Under the pieces are notes generated by a model that worked only from the letters and a program-made list of their open reading frames with translations, was not told the origin of the DNA and ran no database searches. Made by a program: the position numbers and the translations under genes. From assembly GCF_006345805.1 (NCBI RefSeq), contig NC_043012.1:41726001-41790000 (forward strand): a DNA stretch of 64,000 nucleotides, read 5' to 3'. Positions 4,836-63,890 of the stretch are shown here, one piece after another (within the stretch, counting starts at the first letter, position 1; the number at the start of each line of letters is the position of its first letter). This stretch comes from Octopus sinensis (lineage: Eukaryota).

Positions 4836-7060
4836 TCTAGTTTCAGCTCACAAGCTGTGGCCATGCTGGGGCACCGCCATTTGGTGTTGCTACATGATTT
4901 TACTTCACGAATGCTTTTTAGCAACTGCCATTTGGTGCATGAGAGAGTTCGATGCAGCTGCCCTCATCTGCACCTCCTGCCGTGAAGTTGGTTCCTCTGG
5001 GAAACCTGACAAGGAGAGATCCAGTTTTATTTTAAAGACATCTACATCCACCCCATGCAGGTCTCTTAGGTTCATCGGGAGGATATTGAAGAGCTGTGGG
5101 CCTCGGAAGCCCAGGCTATCACAGTATCTTGTCCTACATCTTGATGGCAAATTTGTAGTCCTTGGCACTATGCAGTGGCGCCCAAGTCCTTCTAGGATCT
5201 TCCAGATGTATATTATGGCATATCTTTCTCGCCTACGCTCTAAGGAATATAGTCTTAATCTCCTGAGTCTTTCCCAGTAGCTTATATGCTGCACAGAGGC
5301 TATCTTCTTCGTGTATCTTCGTTGGATCGCCTCAAGTTCTGTGATTAACTTGACACTGGATGGTGACCATAGCTGAGAGCAATAGTCAAAGTGGCTTAGG
5401 ACAAGTGTCCTCCAGAGGACCATCATGGTTTCCTGGTCTCTTGTTCTAAAGGTTCTAAGAATCCATCCGGTCAGCCGCCTACTTTTCATTGCCAATTTAG
5501 CAACATGCACATGAAAGGTTGCATCATCACTCATGTAAATACCCAGGTCTCGCACTGATTGTGCCTCTGGGATTGCAATCCCTCCAGGTCCAGTGTATTC
5601 ATTGGGTATTGCATTCAGTTTTGCATGCTGATAGCATAAAGCTTGAAACTTTTCAGTATTGAACTGCATGCTATTCTTTTCAGCCCACTTGTATATTTTG
5701 TCCAGCTCACATTGCAGGTGCTTAGTGTCTTCAGGGTTCTGTATTGCCTGTGAAACTTTTGTATCATCTGCATAACTTGTGATCGTGGCTCTCTGTGTGG
5801 CTGAGGGCATGTCTGAGAGGGCCATTATGAACAGTAGTGGTCCCAAAACAGTGCCCTGCGGAACACCGCTCACTATTTGCGTGTTAATGGAAGTGGCTAC
5901 TACCATCTGACTTCTATCCTTCAGAAAATCATGAAGCCATTCTCCCAGTTTTCCAACTCTGCCAAGATCACGCAGTTTGTGACATATCATTCCATGATCG
6001 ACTTTATCAAAGGCCTTTGCAAAGTCGAGATATATGACTTCCACATTAGAGTGGTTGAGCAGTCGTTTCAGCACCCAGTCATAGTGTAGTAGGAGCTGAG
6101 TTAAGCTGCTTCTTCCTGGTCGGAAACCATGTTGGGTGTCAGGCAGCAAGTCATTTTCTTCAAGGAAGGTGATTAGTTTCCTTCTGACTATTCGTTCCAT
6201 GACCTTGCTGATGTGTGAGGTCAGAGAGATAGGTCTGTAGTTCTTGGCCTCCGCTCTGCTACCTCCTTTATGAATAAGGCATATTTTACCTTCCTTCAGT
6301 TTTCTTGGAAGTTTGCCAGTTGCAAGGAAGCTCTGAAAGAGGAACTGCAGTGGTCTTGCTAGGACTCTCTTACATGCTTTTAGAAGGATTGCCGGGAATC
6401 CATCGGGGCCAGTACCTGAGATTGTTTTCATTTCATCTATAGCCTTTATTACATCGTCTTCCTTTATATTGTTGTAATCAATCATCGCTGCCTCTGATTT
6501 TATATCTGCAGTGGTAAAGAAGTCAGTTGGATTGCTGACTTGAAAATGCCCAAGGGGTGGAGTGAAAACACTCTTGAATTGCTCATTCAGTTTTTCACTT
6601 ATCCTCATTGGATTTCCTGTGAGTGTGCCATCCCTTTCAAGGAGTGGCCCTATCCTACAGTGCACCGTAGCTGTTTCTCTGGCATACCTGTAGAAAGCTC
6701 TGGGGTTAGATTTTATGTTGTCTATAGCCCAGGCTTCTTTGTCTGCTCTTTCCTTTTCATGGGAGAGTTGCAGACATTTTTCGATTTCCAACAGTTTTAT
6801 TTTTAGGCGGGACTTTTCACTGCTTTCAATTTGTTTGTTTCGGCGATTTGAAACTTTTCTACGCGTCTCATTAGAATTTTCCTCTCTCTGGGGATTTTGT
6901 TCTTGTGTACAGTGGCCTTTCTCTCTGGGACACATTTGTAGCATATGGCTTGCATTACAGACATGAATTGTTGAAGTTTCATGTCGATGTCTGGCGAGGA
7001 TAGACATTCAGGCCATTTTCCTGTTTGTCAATGAGGAAGCCTTCTTGGTTGTTCACCCTG

Positions 7061-15500: not shown

Positions 15501-15526
15501 GATGTATATATATGTATATATATATG

Positions 15527-15571
<45 letters not shown>

Positions 15572-15579
15572 TATATATA

Positions 15580-18500
15580 TACTAAGCAATAAGGGTTTAG
15601 CAACGAATTGCCTTACCACATACCGAATTTAGAAATAGCAGTCAAAGGGTTATAGCTATTTCTTCTACTAAAAAGGGAGATCTCAGATAAAAACAGCAAT
15701 TGGAAGGCTGACACAAACAGGTAAGAGAGAATGATTAACTGCAATCTATCAAACATTTTTAAAGTTATCTACGGACGTACGTTTCGAAATCAAGTTTTTA
15801 GGAAAGCATAAGAATTAAATATTAAATATTAAATAATTCTATCTTACCGAAACTTCTTTTCTCTTCAGCGTAGAATACTATAATCATAAATGATTATATA
15901 TTGAATTTTGAGATACTAGGAGGCACCAACTCAACTCAGTATCAGAGCGAGCTAGAATCCGCAACTAGTATCACCGAATTCAAATTTGTGAATGAAACGA
16001 TTGTGTCAACAGCCCCTTCCACCCGCGTGTAGCCAAAACAAGATGCTGTGGTCATCTACTGAGATAAAATATGGTTATCCGTAATAATGAAGGGTGAAAT
16101 TAATTAATTTGGAATAATTATCAATTACACCAAGTAGTCTTCGGCATGTAAAAGCCTCATTCGAGGAAAATTTAAGTAATACTAAGCAATAAGGGTTTAG
16201 CAACGAATTGCCTTACCACATACCGAATTTAGAAATAGCAGTCAAAGGGTTATAGCTATTTCTTCTACTAAAAAGGGAGATCTCAGTAAAAACAGCAATT
16301 GGAAGGCTGACACAAAAGGTAAGAGAGAATGAATTAACTGCAATCTATCAAATTTTTAAAGTTATCTACGGACGTACGTTTCGAAATCAAGTTTTTAGGA
16401 AAGCATAAGAATTAAATATTAAATATTAAATAATTCTATCTTACCGAAACTTCTTTTCTCTTCAGCGTAGAATACTATAATCATAAATGATTATATATTG
16501 AATTTTGAGATACTAGGAGGCACCAACTCAACTCAGTATCAGAGCGAGCTAGAATCCGCAACTAGTATCACGAATTCAAATTTGTGAATGAAACGATTGT
16601 GTCAACAGCCCCTTCCCACCCGCGTGTAGCCAAAACAAGATGCTGTGGTCATCTACTGAGATAAAATATGGTTATCCGTAATAATGAAGGGTGAAATTAA
16701 TTAATTTGGAATAATTATCAATTACACCAAGTAGTCTTCGGCATGTAAAAGCCTCATTCGAGGAAAATTTAAGTAATACTAAGCAATAAGGGTTTAGCAA
16801 CGAATTGCCTTACCACATACCGAATTTAGAAATAGCAGTCAAAGGGTTATAGCTATTTCTTCTACTAAAAAGGGAGATCTCAGTAAAAACAGCAATTGGA
16901 AGGCTGACACAAACAGGTAAGAGAGAATGAATTAACTGCAATCTATCAAACATTTTTAAAGTTATCTACGGACGTACGTTTCGAAATCAAGTTTTTAGGA
17001 AGAAAGAATAAGAATTAAATATTAAATAATTCTATCTTACCGAAACTTCTTTTCTCTTCAGCGTAGAATACTATAATCATAATGATTATATATTGAATTT
17101 TGAGATACTAGGAGGCACCAACTCAACTCAGTATCAGAGCGAGCTAGAATCCGCAACTAGTATCACCGAATTCAAATTTGTGAATGAAACGATTGTGTCA
17201 ACAGCCCCTTCCCACCCGCGTGTAGCCAAAACAAGATGCTGTGGTCATCTACTGAGATAAAATATGGTTATCCGTAATAATGAAGGGTGAAATTAATTAA
17301 TTTGGAATAATTATCAATTACACCAAGTAGTCTTCGGCATGTAAAAGCCTCATTCGAGGAAAATTTAAGTAATACTAAGCAATAAGGTTTAGCAACGAAT
17401 TGCCTTACCACATACCGAATTTAGAAATAGCAGTCAAAGGGTTATAGCTATTTCTTCTACTAAAAAGGGAGATCTCAGTAAAACAGCAATTGAAGGCTGA
17501 CACAAACAGGTAAGAGAGAATGAATTACTGCAATCTATCAAACATTTTTAAAGTTATCTACGGACGTACGTTTCGAAATCAAGTTTTTAGGAAAGCATAA
17601 GAATTAAATATTAAATATTAAATAATTCTATCTTACCGAAACTTCTTTTCTCTTCAGCGCGTAGAATACTATAATCATAAATGATTATATATTGAATTTT
17701 GAGATACTAGGAGGCACCAACTCAACTCAGTATCAGAGCGAGCTAGAATCCGCAACTAGTATCACCGAATTCAAATTTGTGAATGAAACGATTGTGTCAA
17801 CAGCCCCTTCCACCCGCGTGTAGCCAAAACAAATGCTGTGGTCATCTACTGAGATAAAATATGGTTATCCGTAATAATGAAGGGTGAAATTAATTAATTT
17901 GGAATAATTATCAATTACACCAAGTAGTCTTCGGCATGTAAAAGCCTCATTCGAGGAAAATTTAAGTAATACTAAGCAATAAGGGTTTAGCAACGAATTG
18001 CTTACCACATACCGAATTTAGAAATAGCAGTCAAAGGGTTATAGCTATTTCTTCTACTAAAAAGGGAGATCTCAGTAAAAACAGCAATTGGAAGGCTGAC
18101 ACAAACAGGTAAGAGAGAATGAATTAACTGCAATCTATCAAACATTTTTAAAGTTATCTACGGACGTACGTTTCGAAATCAAGTTTTTAGGAAAGCATAA
18201 GAATTAAATATTAAATATTAAATAATTCTATCTTACCGAAACTTCTTTTCTCTTCAGCGTAGAATACTATAATCATAAATGATTATATATTGAATTTTGA
18301 GATACTAGGAGGCACCAACTCAACTCAGTATCAGAGCGAGCTAGAATCCGCAACTAGTATCACCGAATTCAAATTTGTGAATGAAACGATTGTGTCAACA
18401 GCCCCTTCCCACCCGCGTGTAGCCAAAACAAGATGCTGTGGTCATCTACTGAGATAAAATATGGTTATTCGTAATAATGAAGGGTGAAATTAATTAATTT

Positions 18501-21500
18501 GGAATAATTATCAATTACACCAAGTAGTCTTCGGCATGTAAAAGCCTCATTCGAGGAAAATTTAAGTAATACTAAGCAATAAGGGTTAGCAACGAATTGC
18601 CTTACCACATACCGAATTTAGAAATAGCAGTCAAAGGGTTATAGCTATTTCTTCTACTAAAAAGGGAGATCTCAGTAAAAACAGCAATTGGAAGGCTGAC
18701 ACAAACAGGTAAGAGAGAATGAATTAACTGCAATCTATCAACATTTTTAAAGTTATCTACGGACGTACGTTTCGAAATCAAGTTTTTAGGAAAGCATAAG
18801 AATTAAATATTAAATATTAAATAATTCTATCTTACCGAAACTTCTTTTCTCTTCAGCGTAGAATACTATAATCATAAATGATTATATATTGAATTTTGAG
18901 ATACTAGGAGGCACCAACTCAACTCAGTATCAGAGCGAGCTAGAATCCGCAACTAGTATCACCGAATTCAAATTTGTGAATGAAACGATTGTGTCAACAG
19001 CCCTTCCCACCCGCGTGTAGCCAAAACAAGATGCTGTGGTCATCTACTGAGATAAAATATGGTTATCCGTAATAATGAAGGGTGAAATTAATTAATTTGG
19101 AATAATTATCAATTACACCAAGTAGTCTTCGGCATGTAAAAGCCTCATTCGAGGAAAATTTAAGTAATACTAAGCAATAAGGGTTTAGCAACGAATTGCC
19201 TTACCACATACCGAATTTAGAAATAGCAGTCAAAGGGTTATAGCTATTTCTTCTACTAAAAGGGAGATCTCAGTAAAAACAGCAATTGGAAGGCTGACAC
19301 AAACAGGTAAGAGAGAATGAATTAACTGTAATCTATCAAACATTTTTAAAGTTATCTACGGACGTACGTTTCGAAATCAAGTTTTTAGGAAAGCATAAGA
19401 ATTAAATATTAAATATTAAATAATTCTATCTTACCGAAACTTCTTTTCTCTTCAGCGTAGAATACTATAATCATAAATGATTATATATTGAATTTTGAGA
19501 TACTAGGAGGCACCAACTCAACTCAGTATCAGAGCGAGCTAGAATCCGCAACTAGTATCACCGAATTCAAATTTGTGAATGAAACGATTGTGTCAACAGC
19601 CCTTCCCACCCGCGTGTAGCCAAAACAAGATGCTGTGGTCATCTACTGAGATAAAATATGGTTATCCGTAATAATGAAGGGTGAAATTAATTAATTTGGA
19701 ATAATTATCAATTACACCAAGTAGTTTCGGCATGTAAAAGCCTCATTCGAGGAAAATTAAGTAATACTAAGCAATAAGGTTTAGCAACGAATTGCCTTAC
19801 CACATACCGAATTTAGAAATAGCAGTCAAAGGGTTATAGCTATTTCTTCTACTAAAAAGGGAGATCTCAGTAAAAACAGCAATTGGAAGGCTGACACAAA
19901 CAGGTAAGAGAGAATGAATTAACTGCAATCTATCAAACATTTTTAAAGTTATCTACGGACGTACGTTTCGAAATCAAGTTTTTAGGAAAGCATAAGAATT
20001 AAATATTAAATATTAAATAATTCTATCTTACCGAAACTTCTTTTCTCTTCAGCGTAGAATACTATAATCATAAATGATTATATATTGAATTTTGAGATAC
20101 TAGGAGGCACCAACTCAACTCAGTATCAGAGCGAGCTAGAATCCGCAACTAGTATCACCGAATTCAAATTGTGAATGAAACGATTGTGTCAACAGCCCCT
20201 TCCCACCCGCGTGTAGCCAAAACAAGATGCTGTGGTCATCTACTGAGATAAAATATGGTTATCCGTAATAATGAAGGGTGAAATTAATTAATTGGAATAA
20301 TATCAATTACACAAGTAGTCTTCGGCATGTAAAAGCCTCATTCGAGGAAAATTTAAGTAATACTAAGCAATAAGGATTTAGCAACGAATTGCCTTACCAC
20401 ATACCGAATTTAGAAATAGCAGTCAAAGGGTTATATAGCTATTTCTTCTACTAAAAAGGAGATCTCAGTAAAAACAGCAATGGAAGGCTGACACAAACAG
20501 GTAAGAGAGAATGAATTAACTGCAATCTATCAACATTTTTAAAGTTATCTACGGACGTACGTTTCGAAATCAAGTTTTTAGGAAAGCATAAGAATTAAAT
20601 ATTAAATATTAAATAATTCTATCTTACCGAAACTTCTTTTCTCTTCAGCGTAGAATACTATAATCATAAATGATTATATATTGAATTTTGAGATACTAGA
20701 GAGGCACCAACTCAACTCAGTATCAGAGCGAGCTAGAATCCGCAACTAGTATCACCGAATTCAAATTTGTGAATGAAACGATTGTGTCAACAAGCCCTTC
20801 CCACCCGCGTGTAGCCAAAACAAGATGCTTGGTCATCTACTGAGATAAAATATGGTTATCCGTAATAATGAAGGGTGAAATTAATTAATTGGAATAATTA
20901 TCAATTACACCAAGTAGTCTTCGGCATGTAAAAGCCTCATTCGAGGAAAATTTAAGTAATACTAAGCAATAAGGATTTAGCAACGAATTGCCTTACCACA
21001 TACCGAATTTAGAAATAGCAGTCAAAGGGTTATAGCTATTTCTTCTACTAAAAAGGGAGATCTCAGTAAAAACAGCAATTGGAAGGCTGACACAAACAGG
21101 TAAGAGAGAATGAAAACTGCAATCTATCAAACATTTTTAAAGTTATCTACGGACGTACGTTTCGAAATCAAGTTTTTAGGAAAGCATAAGAATTAAATAT
21201 TAAATATTAAATAATCTATCTTACCGAAACTTCTTTTTCTTCAGCGTAGAATACTATAATCATAAATGATTATATATTGAATTTTGAGATACGGAGTGGC
21301 ACCAACTCAACTCAGTATCAGAGCGAGCTAGAATCCGAAACTAGTATCCCGAATTCAAATTTGTGAATGAAACGATTGTGTCAACAGCCTTCCCACCCGC
21401 GTGTAGCCAAAACAAGATGCTGTGGTCATCTACTGAGATAAAATATGGTTATCCGTAATAATGAAGGGTGAAATGAAATTAATTAATTTGGAATAATTAT

Positions 21501-22167
21501 CAATTACACCAAGTAGTCTTCGGCATGTAAAAGCCTCATTCGGGAAAATTTAAGTAATACTAAGCAATAAGGATTTAGCAACGAATTGCCTTACCACATA
21601 CCGAATTTAGAAATAGCAGTCAAAGGGTTATAGCTATTTCTTCTACTAAAAAGGGAGATCTCAGTAAAACAGCAATTGGAAGGCTGACACAAACAGGTAA
21701 GAGAGAATGATTAACTGCAATCTATCAAACATTTTTAAAGTTATCTACGGACGTACGTTTCGAAATCAAGTTTTTAGGAAAGCATAAGAATTAAATATTA
21801 AATATTAAATAATTCTATCTTACCGAAACTTCTTTTTCTTCAGCGTAGAATACTATAATCATAAATGATTATATATTGAATTTTGAGATACTAGAGAGGC
21901 ACCAACTCAACTCAGTATCAGAGCGAGCTAGAATCCGCAACTAGTATCACGAATTCAAATTTGTGAATGAAACGATTGTGTCAACAGCCCCTTCCCACCC
22001 GCGTGTAGCCAAAACAAGATGCTGTGGTCATCTACTGAGATAAAATATGGTTATCCGTAATAATGAAGGGTGAAATTAATTAATTTGGAATAATTATCAA
22101 TTACACCAAGTAGTCTTCGGCATGTAAAAGCCTCATTCGAGGAAAATTTAAGTAATACTAAGCAATA
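15580..22167 (-). repeat. Tandem array of 11 x ~598-bp non-coding units, each with a hammerhead ribozyme fold (retrozyme-like)
   Basis: ACTAAGCAAT unit starts at 15581, 16181, 16778, 17374, 17971, 18571, 19169, 19766, 20362, 20961 and 21559, with a terminal partial at 22157; (TA)n on both sides; no ORF of 60 aa or more lies wholly inside the array. Confidence 0.95.
15768..15874 (-). ncRNA. Type I hammerhead ribozyme with 76-nt stem II (unit 1; repeated in every unit)
   Basis: Minus strand: UCUACG (stem I) CUGAAGA [76-nt hairpin] GAAAC GUAC GUC^ CGUAGA (stem I'); predicted cleavage between 15774 and 15773. Confidence 0.8.
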
Positions 22168-23270: not shown

Positions 23271-24728
23271 CGTGTATAAGGTATTTGAGGACAGTTATAC
23301 ACTTACACAAAAATGACTCTTAGATACAGACAATAATGGTTTCTTACTAAAAAAATGGTTTTGAAGATAAGAATAAACATATTGATTCGACATTTTATTC
23401 AATAAAATATCCTTCAGCTTCAATAACGGCTTCTATGCGAAGTCTGAATCGCCTAGATGCCAGGATCGAGTGGTCTGTGTTCATATTGGACATATCTGAT
23501 TATGGAGGCTTTTAGGGATTCTTTGGTGTTATGAGGGTGCTCATTAACCTCTTTCTCAACTATGCTTCTTGCATAGTAGTCCAATGGATTGAGATCTGGG
23601 GGAGCTAGGAGGCCAAATGTTGGGGGTTATGTGGTCATGAATATTTTCCGCCATTCTTTCCTGCCTTGTGTGATGGTATCGAATCTTGTTGAATCGCATA
23701 AGGCCTTCCATTGCGTACATTAGTGATCCATGGCTTAACCACTGGATTCAGAACATCTATGTAGGCAGCAGATTTTACTCGAAGACCTTGTGGAAAGAGG
23801 TGAGGAGGCATCACATGTCCTTCATTGTTGACACCCCCCCCCCCTAAAACCATGGGGGTTGCAGGGAATTTTGTATGCATTACTCTTGGAACTCCTGAAG
23901 GGTCTGTACATAGCCATCTGTCATTTCTTCTGTTTACTTTCTGATCTTGATCAAAGATTTTCTCGTCTGAGAAGAACCAAAGGACATATTTCTCTTCTGG
24001 GTTTTTAAGTTTGTTCAGGGGTCTTTTAAGCGATTTTCCTTCACTGTTTCTGACATGAAATGACCTTTTCTCATCGTATAAGATTTGCATCTGATGTCTT
24101 TGTGGACAACATTTCGGATTGTTCCTTCTGACACATGGTGTTCTTTTGCAACCAACGTTCATGGATCTTCTGAGATTGTCATTAATGGTCAGCTTTTCTT
24201 GTTGAATAAATTCTGGTGCTCTAATAGTATCAGTGTGTCTACAATGTTTCTTGCGTTTTGATACTGACGATACACTTCCGTCTTTAGCTTCTAACTCTTT
24301 GCGAATTTTGTAGATTAAGGGTCTAGTGACTTTTAAAAATCGTGCTATCTCTAGATTGCTATGTTCAGCCTTTATAGTCACGATGACTGCGTGCCTTTTC
24401 ATTTCTTGTGTAATCATAGGGTCTGGCATTGATAATTCTGACATATAGAAAATATTGATAAATATGAGAGTCAAGACTATTGAAAAGGTTGCAAGACGCA
24501 ACGAAAATTTTAGGAAAATAAAAATAAGAAAAAAGTGGAAATTTTACCGGTGAGTGTGTTACATTATAAGGCACAAAAAGAAAATGACTGTCCCCAGACA
24601 CAACAGAATATGTTTCAACACACGAACTCATATAAAGAACCTTGCAAACCAAATACAAAAACGAAAAATAAATATGATGTTACAGTAAAATTAACATATG
24701 TCCTTAACTACCTTACGCATCCCACGTG
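23271..24728 (-). mobile_element. Tc1/mariner-superfamily transposon, probably maT/DD37D type, frameshifted (ORF 23635..24501)
   Basis: WFFSDEKIF, VNRRNDRW, QQDSIPSH, and downstream WPPSSPDLNPLDY in another frame; degenerate TIRs (TAAGGTA.TT.AGGACA) at both ends. Confidence 0.85.
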
Positions 24729-33463: not shown

Positions 33464-33547
33464 GTCCGTGCTGCATAAAAGATATATGTATATATAAAAA
33501 CCTCTCTCTCTCATACAAGAGTTAAGGAATGGGATGGATAAAATCGG

Positions 33548-33631
33548 GGCTACATATGTTTCATAGCGAGCAGAACCTCAGAAGTGGTAAATATTCAAGC
33601 GAGGTGTGTACTGCAGACTACTCTTCAGGCC
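33548..33631 (-). ncRNA. Hammerhead candidate with 59-nt stem II
   Basis: GGC CUGAAGA [GUAG..GCAG..ACCUC / GAGGU..CUGC..CUAU] GAAAC AUAU GUA^ GCC. Confidence 0.6.
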
Positions 33632-33797
33632 AGGGATATCTTGATTAAATGAAAGTTTACATTGTGGCAAGGTGGTACGTGTTAATGCATGGTGTAAAAC
33701 AATGTAATCTTCTCTTCAGGGAAGTGAAGAAATGAAACTCGTCAATCAGACATTTTAACAGAAAATGATGGATGTGTATAGTGATTTATATCATAAA

Positions 33798-34639: not shown

Positions 34640-35485
34640 GCCAAGGTAGATGAAAGTATGAGGGTGGTGGTTGTGAGTGAAGGGGCCAAGGATGATGAAG
34701 GTATGGTGGTGGTGATGGTTGTGAGTGAAAGGGCCAAGAGAGATGAAGGTATGAGGGTGGTGGTAGTGGTGGTGCTTGTGAGTGAAGGGGCAAGAGAGAT
34801 GAAGTTATGAGATGATGGTGATGGTTGTGAGTGAAGGGGTCAAGGGAGATGAAGGTATGAGAGTGGTGGTGGTTGTGAGTGAAGGGGCCAAGAGAGATGA
34901 AGGTATGAGATGATGGTGGTGGTTGTGAGTGGCCAAGGGAGATGAAAGTATGAGGGTGGTGGAGGTGGTGGTTGTGAGTGAAGGGGCCAAGGGAGATGAA
35001 AGTATGAGGGTGGTGGAGGTGGTGGTTGTGAGTGATGGGGCCAAGGGTGATGAAGGTATGAGGATGGTTGTGAGTGAAGGAGCCAAGGGGGATGAAGGTA
35101 TTAGTTGATGGTGGTGGTTGTGAGTGAAGGGGGCCAAGGGAGATGAAAGTATGAGGGTGGTGGAGGTGGTGGTTGTGAGTGAAGGGGCCAAGGGTGATGA
35201 AGGTATGAGGATGGTTGTGAGTGAAGGGGCCAAGGGAGATGAAGGTATGAAGGTTTTGGAGGTGGTGGTTGTGAGTGAAGGAGCCAAGGGAGATGAAGGT
35301 ATGAGTGGTGGTGATGGTGGTTGTGAGTGAGGGGACCAAGGGAGATGAAGGTATGAAGGTTTTGGAGGTGGTGGTTGTGGGTGAAGAGACCAAGGGAGAT
35401 GAAGGTATGAGGATGGTGGTGTTAGTGGTGGTTGTGAGGGAAGGGGCAAGGGAGATGAAGGTATGAGGATGGTGGTCGTGGTGGT
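34640..35485. repeat. Minisatellite, ~45-60-bp units (GGTTGTGAGTGAAGGGGCCAAGGGAGATGAAGGTATGA)
   Basis: About 16 variable units; source of the His/Pro/Thr-rich ORFs. Confidence 0.9.
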
Positions 35486-36085
35486 GCAAATGTCCCAATA
35501 CCTTCTGGTGTCTGTGCAAGAGAGATGAAATAACATCAAGTCTGTAAAAATCCACTCATAGAATTATTAGCAATCAATCGTTTTACCTATCGATTCAGTA
35601 TTTAGCAATGATCAATAAGTATGTCTGTTCGGTTTGCAAGTTTTCTTCGCAACAATGTCATTTGTTTCTCGGTTCGATTTCTACAGTAGCATCGGCCCCA
35701 TTTTCCGAAGAAGAAATTGGCGAAGCTATGTACAATCCCTCCAAATGGAGTATTGCCGTTGTTTAGTGAGGCACATAATAGATTGCTTTGGTTTAAAACG
35801 GCGCCAAAACCACCAACACTAAAAGCGTCACCACTGCCGTAACCGTCACCGCCGCCGCCGCCACCACCACCACCACCAACACAAATCCCTACCCTTTGAA
35901 TCTGTTTACTGGACTCCATTTACATGAAAATGTATCATTATGTAAATGTATATTTTTTTATATGTGAAGGAGTGTGAGTATATGCACTCATATGTATATA
36001 TATATGTTGTATTGTGGGTACGCACCCACACCCATGTGGGTATATGTGTAGACTGTGTTATATTATATGTGTAGACTGTGTTATA

Positions 36086-36212
36086 ATCTCCGAAGAGGCC
36101 TTGTGATATTTGTCTTAATGTCTCATTTATATCTATATATTGACCAACCATAAAGGGCTAATATTGGTAAAATGAGACATAATTATCGACATGGCCGAAA
36201 CAGCTGTAAGAT
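36086..36212 (+). ncRNA. Hammerhead candidate with 100-nt stem II (U4C variant)
   Basis: AUCU CCGAAGA GGCC..AUGUCUCAUUU/AAAUGAGACAU..GGCC GAAAC AGCU GUA^ AGAU. Confidence 0.6.
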
Positions 36213-36628
36213 CTAATTTATACTTATATTTATATTTACTTGTATTTATATTCTTTTTTATATATATTCTAATTATTATACAACATTACTCTTTTATGTA
36301 CACTTTTTTATGTACACTCCTTTATGTACACTGATTTGTTCTGCTTTTTATATTTAACCCTACAGTCTCTTATGTGGTGGTTTAATAAAGTATGTGATTA
36401 TCTGGTAATTGATATTTGAATTAGATGTATTTCTCTATTTTCTTATCTTGTGGTAAATTCTTATCTTTGTGGTAAATCATTTTACCTTTGCCCATATAAT
36501 ACAGTAAATGAATTGATTGCATCGCAATCATTAATATTTATGTATTAACTTTGTTGGGTACTTCACTAGCAGTATATTGGATATACGTTATCCCATAGAG
36601 GGTTGCATTTACAACCCCTATCTCAATT

Positions 36629-36663
<35 letters not shown>

Positions 36664-42568: not shown

Positions 42569-43299
42569 TTATTATTATTATTATTATTAAGGCGGCGAAT
42601 TGGCTGAACGCTAGCATGCTGAGTAAAATGCTTAGCGGCATTTCGTCGGTTTTTACGTTCTGGGTTCAAATTCCGCCGAAGTCGACTTAGCCTTTTATTC
42701 TCAGAGAAATCTGGACTCAGAACGTGAAGACGGAAGAAATGCCTATTGTTTGGTCGAAAATTGGATGTTGTGGTTTTTAGAATTATAGGTACAAACGAAA
42801 AGAATTATGCTTTTGTTTTTGTCTTCACCTTCTTTGTGCTAGCTTCTCTGTGAGATAGAAACTGGAATCGCTTTTGATATTGTTATGGTATGTTTTATTA
42901 ATTTTTTCTGGACGTGTTGTGTGAAATAATTGAACAAGACAAAATCAAAAGCGAAACACAAAATTTCACTTACTACATCACGTGGCCAAAATGCAATGTG
43001 AATTATATTGGCCAAATGGGATCAAAATGAATTGAACGGGTTTGAGTACATAAACAACAAATCAAAGATTCATCTCTTAGAATGGTTCCATGTAGTGAGT
43101 ATATTTGTGCGGGCGGAAAATTTGAAATACCTCCTTTTTAAAAATAAAGAAAAGAATCAGCTACGAAAGGCATAAGAATTGTAAATCAGAAACGAACACC
43201 GGAAATATTCATCAGTGCTACAAATATCAACTTCCTCTATACAAAGTGCATCATAACACGTGTTTGCACAATACGAAGGTCTTCCAAAAGATTTTCTGA

Positions 43300-62054: not shown

Positions 62055-63890
62055 CCTAATGGTTCTGATCCTAAATACGGATGCATAAAAGGCAATGGAT
62101 GCACCTTATTCCATCCTAAACTGTGCCAAATTTCTGTCTCACAAAGGATGTGCCTGAACCCAGAATGCAACCACCACCATCTGAAGAGCACAAAACGATC
62201 ACAGAATAAATATAAACAGGAACAGAGGAAATCTAGGATAACAACAAGAACAAAATACAACCACGTTTCCCCTCCCACAATCAAACAACGTAGACAGAAC
62301 CATGAAAAAACACCAAACAACGCCAACATGAAATATGTATCCTCTGACCAAGTGGCAAACCAAACAAGTAACTCTTTTTTACTGACATACCTAGAAAATA
62401 TGAAGGCCGACCTAAGCCAGGAGATCCAGCGAGCTATCACCAACCATCTATGCAAATCACAAGGACCACTCACCCATTACCAACTTCCCTTACCTCGACA
62501 TTCCTGTTAAATGTACGTGGCATCAACCCATCAATTATTGCCCAAAAATGGAAGATCCCATATATAGAGAGTTGGCTTGCCGAAATGGCACATTGCTTCC
62601 CTTTCTTTATCCTTACCGAGACTCACCTGAACAACACCCATATGGACGCAGAGGTGAAAATAAAAGATTTCACCATTGTTCGTGCGGATCGCACAGACCG
62701 AAATAAGGGAGGGACAGCCATCTTTATCCATGACTCCTTTTCACTTGATGCCAAGACATATTTTCCAATGGCTACTGTGAATCGGTATCACTATACAACA
62801 AAGCCAAGGACATAACCATTGTTGGTCTTTACAGGCCTCCCCAGGCACCTCTAAAGTACTTTGAAGAGTGCCTTAGCAAAGTCAAGTCCTTCCTTCGGAA
62901 GTACCACTCCGAAACATACTAGTGATGGGTGATTTTAACCTCCCTCATGTGAACTGGCCCACAAATACTCTGAAGTTAGGCAAGTGCTCTACATCAGATA
63001 GAGCAGCAGCAGAACTGCTCTTTAATCTGATGGATGAGTATTTCCTGACTCAGCTAGTGCTTGAACCAACGAGACAGAATAAAACGATCTTGGATCTGGT
63101 ATTGACCAATCACTCTAGCTACGTTCACAGTATTTCAGTCGAAAAAACTCTCCTCTCAGACCATGACATGGTACTCTGCAATCTTAATTCCCGACATATA
63201 AAAACCAAACCAGCCAATCCCACTCCATGGCACCCATTTGACCACATAAACTTCCACAAAGCGGACTGGGTAACAATCAGAAAGGATCTATCTTCCATCG
63301 ACTGGTCTTTTATTCTCAATTCCTCTCATATTGAGACCGCGTGGCAGCACTTTGAAAACATTGTCACCTATACATGCTCTAAACACGCTCCCAAGAAATC
63401 TACTAACACAAACAGAAATCGGCTCCCTAAAAAGAAAAAAAACACTCATCAGGCGCATCAAAAGACTCAACAAAAAAATCAACCAATTAAAATATTCTCA
63501 CACACAACATCCACATTCAACAACAATGAAAAGACTAGAGCTGGAAAAACTTCATCTGCAGACCAGCATGAAAACCTCCATTGAAAATTAAAGAGCTGTG
63601 GAGGAACAATGGGTAATCAAAAACATCAAACAGAACCCAAAAGTGTTCTATTCTTATGCAAATAAGCATAGAACCACTGTCTCACCCATTGGGCCATAGA
63701 TTGATGATAACGGCATTCCCCAACACGATGCTAAAGAAATGGCAGAAATACTGCAGAAACAATACTGCTCTGTCTTTAGTGTTCCCACTGATATTGACGT
63801 AAGGGAAACGAACGAAGTTGACTCCCAACACAAAATCTCAGACATAACCTTCACTGCCACTGACATCGTAGCAGCAATAAATGAGGTCCT
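62055..63890 (+). pseudogene. CR1-group LINE 5' half: ORF1 Cys/His-rich end, APE endonuclease and linker; frameshifted
   Basis: [16 protein letters not shown]...CLNPECNHHH; LLNVRGI, ILTETHL, GLYRPP, MGDFNLPHVNW, PTRQNKTILDLVLTN, LSDH; linker similar to that of the 4836-7062 copy. Confidence 0.85.

Follow-up and report, generated by a model that had tools for sequence, protein, structure and literature searches.

The long-armed hammerhead motifs of this octopus genome are probably type I hammerheads located in the terminal repeats of Hydra-clade Penelope-like elements (PLEs) and in short non-coding repeats which these elements likely mobilise. Cutting is predicted for the dimer only, and their long stem II likely serves as a folding scaffold without contributing a new catalytic part. 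Judged from the sequences, they look like a real and abundant long-stem-II variant of the dimer-type PLE hammerhead, lineage-specific in appearance and with predicted activity.

Hammerhead motifs in the window

The window, i.e., the whole stretch of 64,000 nt of Octopus sinensis DNA analysed in this study, contains the three motifs of this kind named in the original prediction. The first is found in unit 1 of a tandem array (15768..15874, minus strand), where a type I hammerhead has a 6-bp stem I (15874-15869 with 15773-15768), the core CUGAAGA (15868-15862), a rod-like 76-nt stem II (15786..15861) with helices of 4+6+2+3+7+2 bp, and the stretch GAAAC-GUAC-GUC (15774..15785), which holds the second core, the 8-nt palindrome A15.1-U16.1 and the cleavage triplet; the cut is predicted between 15774 and 15773. 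The minimum free energy (MFE) fold of the 76-mer has -13.8 kcal/mol (z -2.5), and the helices named for this arm in the original prediction match it. The second motif (33548..33631, minus strand) has its core at 33628-33622, a 59-nt stem II (33621-33563; fold z -1.33), GAAAC-AUAU-GUA at 33562-33551 and a proximal stem I of 3 bp. Both show the type I hammerhead core, i.e., CUGANGA, GAAA and a cleavage triplet with U16.1-H17. The third (36086..36212, plus strand) has the core CCGAAGA (36090-36096), a 100-nt stem II (36097-36196; fold z -4.04) and GAAAC-AGCU-GUA (36197-36208), and, given the U4C change, is a core variant of the type I hammerhead. CCGAAGA was found in 30 of 31 distinct copies fetched of the repeat family concerned (family 3) and CUGANGA in none of the 31; sister families of family 3 have CUGANGA.

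All three arm lengths and positions in the original prediction were borne out. The common pattern that it had recognised, GAAAC followed by a 4-nt palindrome and GUH, is present in the three motifs, although the CCGAAGA first core of the third had gone unmentioned. That the stem sequences are unrelated agrees with blastn, by which no similarity was found between the three motif regions. The second motif lies in a family 2 fragment (33513..33692, minus strand) with 86-89% identity to other copies, and 33713..33719 (minus strand) marks another, decayed hammerhead belonging to the 53-59-nt group, of which it is the first core. The third lies in a family 3 copy (35933..36663, plus strand), which is the 5'-truncated 3' end of a Hydra-type PLE with (TA)n at its end.

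With a relaxed descriptor allowing stem II of up to 200 nt, the window yielded 11 long matches with this type of loop, as against none from 200 local dinucleotide shuffles, so that the comparison proposed together with the prediction came out in its favour. Five further motifs of other sequence, with stem II of 26, 42, 53, 75 and 77 nt, were found in 40 arbitrarily placed 10-kb stretches (400 kb), as against 0.033 per shuffle (n=30).

Genome-wide abundance and detection

The pattern CUGANGA-G...Y-GAAAC-N4-GUH was counted in the 2.72-Gb assembly with the reversed pattern as control, for stem II of 8-27, 47-77 and 78-108 nt and with the stems unchecked. There were 21,448 matches against 130 reversed (165-fold) at 47-77 nt, 3,029 against 119 (25-fold) at 78-108 nt and 2,071 against 81 at 8-27 nt, and the ratio of long to short stem II was about 10:1 within the GAAAC-N4-GUH type. 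A looser short-stem pattern (GAAA-N4-UH, stem II 8-36) gave 88,925 matches against 31,861 in the control, an excess of about 57,000; since short minimal forms are in such large excess, long arms are in the majority only within the GAAAC-N4-GUH type and not among all hammerhead-like motifs. First-look candidates numbered 3,731 for family 2 (33628 motif) and 1,502 for family 3 (36090 motif).

The loci fetched contained 161 distinct motifs, which formed 47 clusters, some of them chance pairings, with stem II from 14 nt upward; lengths in this genome grade continuously from 14 to 105 nt, and the family 3 group occupies 82-105 nt. At least 24 families (stem II 39-105 nt, 66% A+U) passed a filter of stem II >=38 nt, a perfect palindrome and stem I >=3 bp. 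Across these 24 families the core boxes are kept, with N7 free to vary and the remaining core positions fixed, while ten different palindromes occur and the stems share no sequence. The first helix of stem II has at least 4 bp in 75% of them, as against 11% for the ends of mismatched families; in 16 of the 24 it runs for 4-7 bp and is then interrupted, its length ranging from 0 to 12 bp.

The published descriptor allows a stem II of at most 7+10+7 nt (24 nt) and a loop 3 of 2 nt (PMC4209133 Fig. S7). With Rfam Hammerhead_1 (RF00163), the array motif scored 20.2 bits, under the gathering score of 34, and the 33628 and 36090 motifs gave no match; a whole-window Rfam search (E<=5) had no hammerhead among the 150 listed of 291 matches, nearly all of which were microsatellite look-alikes. 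The expectation that standard descriptors and models would miss these motifs held for the PMC4209133 descriptor and for the Rfam gathering score, while the long arm as sole cause did not hold: short-stem relatives are likewise missed by Rfam, and the failure therefore does not come from the long arm alone. As the roughly 24,000 above-control matches lie beyond the published descriptor and below the Rfam threshold, counts of hammerheads in genomes of this kind are probably too low.

Carrier elements

Judged by diagnostic motifs, the carriers of the long-arm motifs are Hydra-clade Penelope-like retrotransposons. The families belong to one element superfamily, and the suggestion of independent recurrence in unrelated repeats was not upheld. 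A family with a 55-nt arm and 18,624 first-look candidates lies 3' of a GIY-YIG frame: its motif stands about 600-640 nt past the stop in 10/10 long-frame Hydra loci and is also present upstream, on the same strand, in two of the ten (L217 and L219). In these two loci the motif flanks an 899-aa frame that has DKT, YRDD, CxxC and CxH as well as a C-terminal GIY-YIG lacking CCHH. The features of the Hydra clade, i.e., a C-terminal GIY-YIG without CCHH and with CxxC and CxH around E and N, were found in L217, L267 and L276, DKT being observed in the L217 family alone, and the reverse transcriptase (RT) motifs agree by eye with the published Hydra alignment (PMC8557442). The 899-aa frame differs from the Hydra clade of PMC8557442 in that RWK reads RWL and the CxCX5C linker is absent; L267 and L276 carry CxCX5C. 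The L217 element terminates about 70 nt beyond the predicted cut site; in the upstream copy, its terminal sequence carries on into the 5' UTR. A long Ser/Asn-rich insert was observed in the L217 frame (L217:2738-5434) at the site of the CxCX5C linker of other Hydra elements, and many of its relatives have about 700 aa.

Family 3 extends upstream for at least 1.9 kb into a 348-aa Hydra-type frame remnant with CxCX5C, the stop of which lies 1,668 nt before the motif (L267). The 60-nt family likewise leads upstream to a Hydra-type frame (L276), and the 53- and 54-nt families lie 3' of Hydra-type endonuclease fragments. No coding parent was found for family 1 (the array) or family 2, which counts against the explanation preferred here. 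An inverted endonuclease fragment beside the family 2 copy L032 was rejected as the parent, since the motif follows in none of 14 other copies, and a fragment 3' of family 3 in L043 and L044 is on the far side of a (TA)n tract and was interpreted as an insertion of its own.

The Hydra frame goes unrecognised by Pfam; a Pfam GIY-YIG search yielded mainly other PLE families, and those examined had short or degenerate motifs. In one PLE family with a 781-aa frame (L131-L138, L140 and L150), the 3' UTR has a long hairpin, the GAAACAUGU palindrome and stem-I-like pairing and has no CUGANGA first core; it may be a long-stem hammerhead that has degenerated in a young PLE family outside the Hydra clade. 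A frame of 479 aa (L133:1674-3110, plus strand; also in L136), for which Pfam gave no match, overlaps the start of the 781-aa frame and could be an ORF1. In another PLE family, with a 775-aa frame (L137, L139 and L141), a short minimal hammerhead with an 18-nt stem II and GAAA-GUAC-UA was seen about 500-630 nt past the stop, with U4C in one copy.

Among Hydra-type elements on metagenome contigs (L281-L358), the descriptor matched in 36 of 78 loci and gave no match in 42. Stem II in these matches was 10-25 nt, except for two 155-nt matches within coding sequence, apparently chance; since the Hydra elements of other hosts have arms of 10-25 nt, long arms on such a scale seem to be specific to this lineage. 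Hydra-type elements were common in the metagenomes, where hammerheads with a 7-8-nt inner stem III and a stem II of up to 11 perfect pairs were observed. On viral contigs, stems were present in 0/31 pattern matches.

The 598-bp array

The family 1 array (15581..22167, minus strand) consists of 11 non-coding units, each of about 598 bp, together with a terminal repeat of 12 nt, and lies between (TA)n tracts, of which the one at its fixed 3' end (15505..15581) is the likely insertion target. All 11 units contain the motif and nine keep G10.1-C11.1, with a stem II of 76 nt in eight and 72 nt in one. Besides that of unit 1, the intact motifs are at 16371-16465, 16971-17061 (72 nt), 17563-17657, 18163-18257, 18762-18856, 19361-19455, 19958-20052 and 20554-20648, and the two without G10.1 at 21152-21244 and 21750-21843 (stem II 74 and 75 nt), all on the minus strand. 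The deletion in the latter two is next to an A run and may be an assembly error.

With non-coding tandem units that have one type I hammerhead each and are dispersed in the genome (946 first-look candidates, top copies 95-99% identical), the array fits a non-autonomous non-LTR retrozyme inserted in (TA)n, for which a circular form is predicted. Its insertion shows the features of PLEs, i.e., a fixed 3' end, 5' truncation, an inverted segment and a microsatellite target, and it ends 193 nt beyond the predicted cut site. Family 1 arrays show 5' truncation and end in (TA)n; among 21 of them, inverted arms were found in 11, and in 14 of the 21 substitutions were fixed across all scored units, which is equally consistent with an uncut multimer as template. 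One stem I pair has changed from U-A to C-G in six of the 21 arrays and to U-G in four, the 5' side alone never having changed, and the tip of stem II has drifted to give lengths of 69, 72, 76, 83 and 89 nt.

A second end type, 97-117 nt past the usual 3' end, was observed in L152, L156, L159, L162-L164 and L166-L170; it mostly concerns one arm of inverted insertions and is like the PLE 'tail', only longer. Part of the array unit is also present in contigs of 19 sequencing runs from four organisms, runs not on record as RNA.

Pairing and dimer folding

Pairing in stem I and stem II is supported by compensatory changes in the alignments. Among eight 53-55-nt relatives, both sides change in 8 of 25 pairs, six of these in proximal stem II, and the score was reached by 0/500 shuffles (relatedness being ignored); compensatory changes were likewise found at 7 of the 24 pairs predicted for the group of family 3 and at 4 of the 11 pairs named for that of family 1. 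The stem II rod was absent from the RNAalifold result on a gappy 4-sequence alignment of family 1.

The dependence on dimers put forward in the original prediction was supported by computed folding, in which stem III has a probability of 0.02-0.04 in the monomer for all five motifs folded. With a 2-bp stem III and a palindromic loop, the motifs are of the dimer type, and their stem III is calculated to be stable only between two copies, the double hammerhead being favoured over two active monomers by 11-16 kcal/mol. The MFE fold of the dimer included an intermolecular stem III in 5/5 and the full active fold in two (array and 33628); in the other three (36090, the 55-nt Hydra motif and L023), stem I was lost or half formed, and this counts against the preferred explanation. 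Among 40 matches not selected by their loop, copies of one family recurring, the palindrome was perfect in 30 (chance 6%) and in 37 with G-U allowed (chance 14%). The loop that closes stem II lies well away from the core, and no conserved internal-loop bases were seen among families. A CAUUY motif occurs 3' of the cut in 27 of the 40 matches, as against 8 upstream; it lies outside the ribozyme and, as a lead only, may be a recognition signal.

Relation to known hammerheads

The minimal hammerheads of PLEs, as described by Cervera and De la Pena (2014; PMC4209133), are alike in being type I, in their short stem I and palindromic loop III, in the dimer model, in their location in terminal repeats, in the inverted pairs and in the circle model. 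They have a helix II of 6-8 bp, usually with one additional nucleotide following A9 and a loop III of 2 nt, whereas the motifs studied here have a multi-helix rod of 39-105 nt, mostly no extra nucleotide, and a 4-nt palindrome between A-C and G-U. The Hydra-clade PLEs of Craig et al. (2021; PMC8557442) share with the carriers the C-terminal GIY-YIG without CCHH, DKT, CxxC and CxH, (TA)n targets and a hammerhead at the 3' end. In the Hydra rows of File S2 of that paper, however, stem II has about 11-23 nt, the octopus element included, as against the long arms here; a motif near-identical to this published short octopus motif is present among the 8-27-nt matches. The clade is called small in PMC8557442, whereas here one family by itself has 18,624 first-look candidates, i.e., a very large expansion within a clade described from few families.

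Animal non-LTR retrozymes (PMC7229834; 10.64898/2026.07.22.740005) likewise consist of non-coding units in tandem, each with a single type I hammerhead, and have been proposed to derive from PLE terminal repeats (10.64898/2026.07.22.740005). The array differs from them in its 598-bp unit and 76-nt stem II. A long stem II is tabulated for the spike-moss elements PLE-X1_sMoe (9 bp and a 35-nt loop, 54 nt in all) and PLE-X1_sTam (29-nt loop) in PMC8557442 File S2; these differ in being two isolated plant-clade entries with an irregular stem III, and the rows give no family-scale or covariation analysis. The double hammerheads of newt satellite 2 and ASBVd (PMC6155905, PMC3088659) are alike in that a weak stem III is completed in the dimer, but the amphibian motif as described there has a canonical short helix II with loop-loop contacts, unlike the motifs here.

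The 'distinct class' of the original prediction was not supported, because dimer dependence was already known, stem II is continuous from 14 to 105 nt and a 54-nt case in a plant PLE had been tabulated. Engineered hammerheads tolerate large insertions in stem II. Aptamers have been placed in this stem (PMC12192606), and a palindromic stem III of the dimer type is a known design of PLE and retrozyme hammerheads (PMC4209133, PMC6765202, PMC3088659 Fig. S8 legend). The 'long helix II' of PMC13725137 is 6-8 bp, and the portions of PMC10085705, PMC12192606 and PMC6962438 covered here hold nothing further on a long stem II. No description of the long rod at family scale was found in the literature searched, in which papers on PLE hammerhead dimers were partly covered. 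The 98-99% identical young arrays, the intact autonomous frame, the natural U4C family and the natural series of arm lengths make the role of hammerheads in PLEs directly testable.

Proposed mechanism and alternatives

Dimer cleavage, circularisation and copying at (TA)n are favoured as the mechanism, following the model of dimer cleavage, circularisation and target-primed copying in PMC4209133. RT/GIY-YIG frames are followed on their 3' side by the motif in sense orientation, and complete copies also have it about 330 nt upstream. In a read-through transcript, the two copies would pair by the 8-nt palindrome to form a double hammerhead and be cut after GUH, and the resulting unit-length RNA would then be ligated into a circle. 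The anatomy of the insertions suggests that the Hydra protein would nick (TA)n, that priming would take place at a set position some 70-200 nt downstream of the cut, and that copying would proceed through the cut site, often for many rounds, to give tandem and inverted arrays truncated at the 5' end. L217 and the array run past the cut, where a cleaved linear RNA would stop, so that the template would be a religated circle or an uncut multimer. Stem II would form a stable local rod in AU-rich RNA that keeps CUGANGA beside GAAA before the partner comes, with its pairing under selection and its tip length drifting.

Some evidence stands against this mechanism. Animal PLE hammerheads had low activity in vitro (PMC4209133), and Xenopus dimers showed no cutting in 8/9 (10.64898/2026.07.22.740005). 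Family 3 has reached a high copy number with U4C in 30 of the 31 copies compared, so that its spread may not require the core to be intact; no source on how U4C acts was found in the literature searched. The fixation of U4C is also the main evidence that the motifs could be catalytically dead, movement proceeding via uncut multimeric transcripts and the palindrome and rods serving RNA dimerisation or being inherited relics. It is accompanied by the PLE family that keeps the hairpin and the GAAACAUGU palindrome without the first core, by the spread of Naiad elements without canonical hammerheads as reported in PMC8557442, and by cDNA that continues through the cut site. Such a loss of catalysis is nevertheless improbable, given that both core boxes are conserved in 24 families with unrelated stems, that N7 varies freely while the rest of the core is fixed, and that the sister families of family 3 carry CUGANGA. 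More improbable still is a mechanistically distinct ribozyme that would owe fast cleavage to an internal loop of the rod, or to the packing of two rods in the dimer, in place of the loop I-loop II contact. The first helix is indeed interrupted after 4-7 bp in 16/24 families, where the canonical loop II would lie, and stem I goes on past an internal loop in the folds, but no conserved loop nucleotides were seen among families and the helix length varies between 0 and 12 bp.

The distal rod could also be a second functional module which binds the Hydra reverse transcriptase or a host protein and sets the priming site or licenses parasites. Compensatory pairs that extend far from the core, the roughly tenfold predominance of long forms within the GAAAC-N4-GUH type, and the retention of the rod both in family 3, despite its core change, and in the non-coding arrays are in line with this idea; it seems unlikely, however, as the rods share no sequence and vary from 39 to 105 nt, 10-25 nt suffice for the Hydra elements of other hosts, and CAUUY, outside the ribozyme, is a better candidate for a signal. 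Eight Naiad entries in PMC8557442, two of them from cephalopods, are labelled 'HHR_half_core' and have cores 35-50 nt apart, for which the long-armed motif offers a candidate reading. In a bolder and equally doubtful extension, stem II in this lineage would now be a long handle by which the Hydra RT recognises circular templates, and which autonomous and parasitic copies, numbering in the tens of thousands, have in common; the 'half cores' of cephalopod and other Naiads would be the same long-armed ribozymes, and animal genomes would hold a large uncounted set of hammerheads; if this were true, the claim that Naiads lack hammerheads would need to be revisited.

Other repeats

Tandem arrays of other retrozyme families were observed elsewhere in the genome, one with a 14-nt stem II and a period of about 353 bp (G000:C1:148255725-148257169) and one with a 26-nt stem II and a period of about 548 bp (C1:122755272-122759593). 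Within the window, a decayed GIY-YIG fragment of a PLE is present at 42923-43138 (plus strand) and a minisatellite with a 54-bp base unit at 34642-35485. Judged by eye from translations, there are also a 700-aa LINE-type reverse transcriptase frame (4905-7007, minus strand), LINE endonuclease-like fragments (62372-63584, plus strand) and a transposase-like frame (23635-24543, minus strand).
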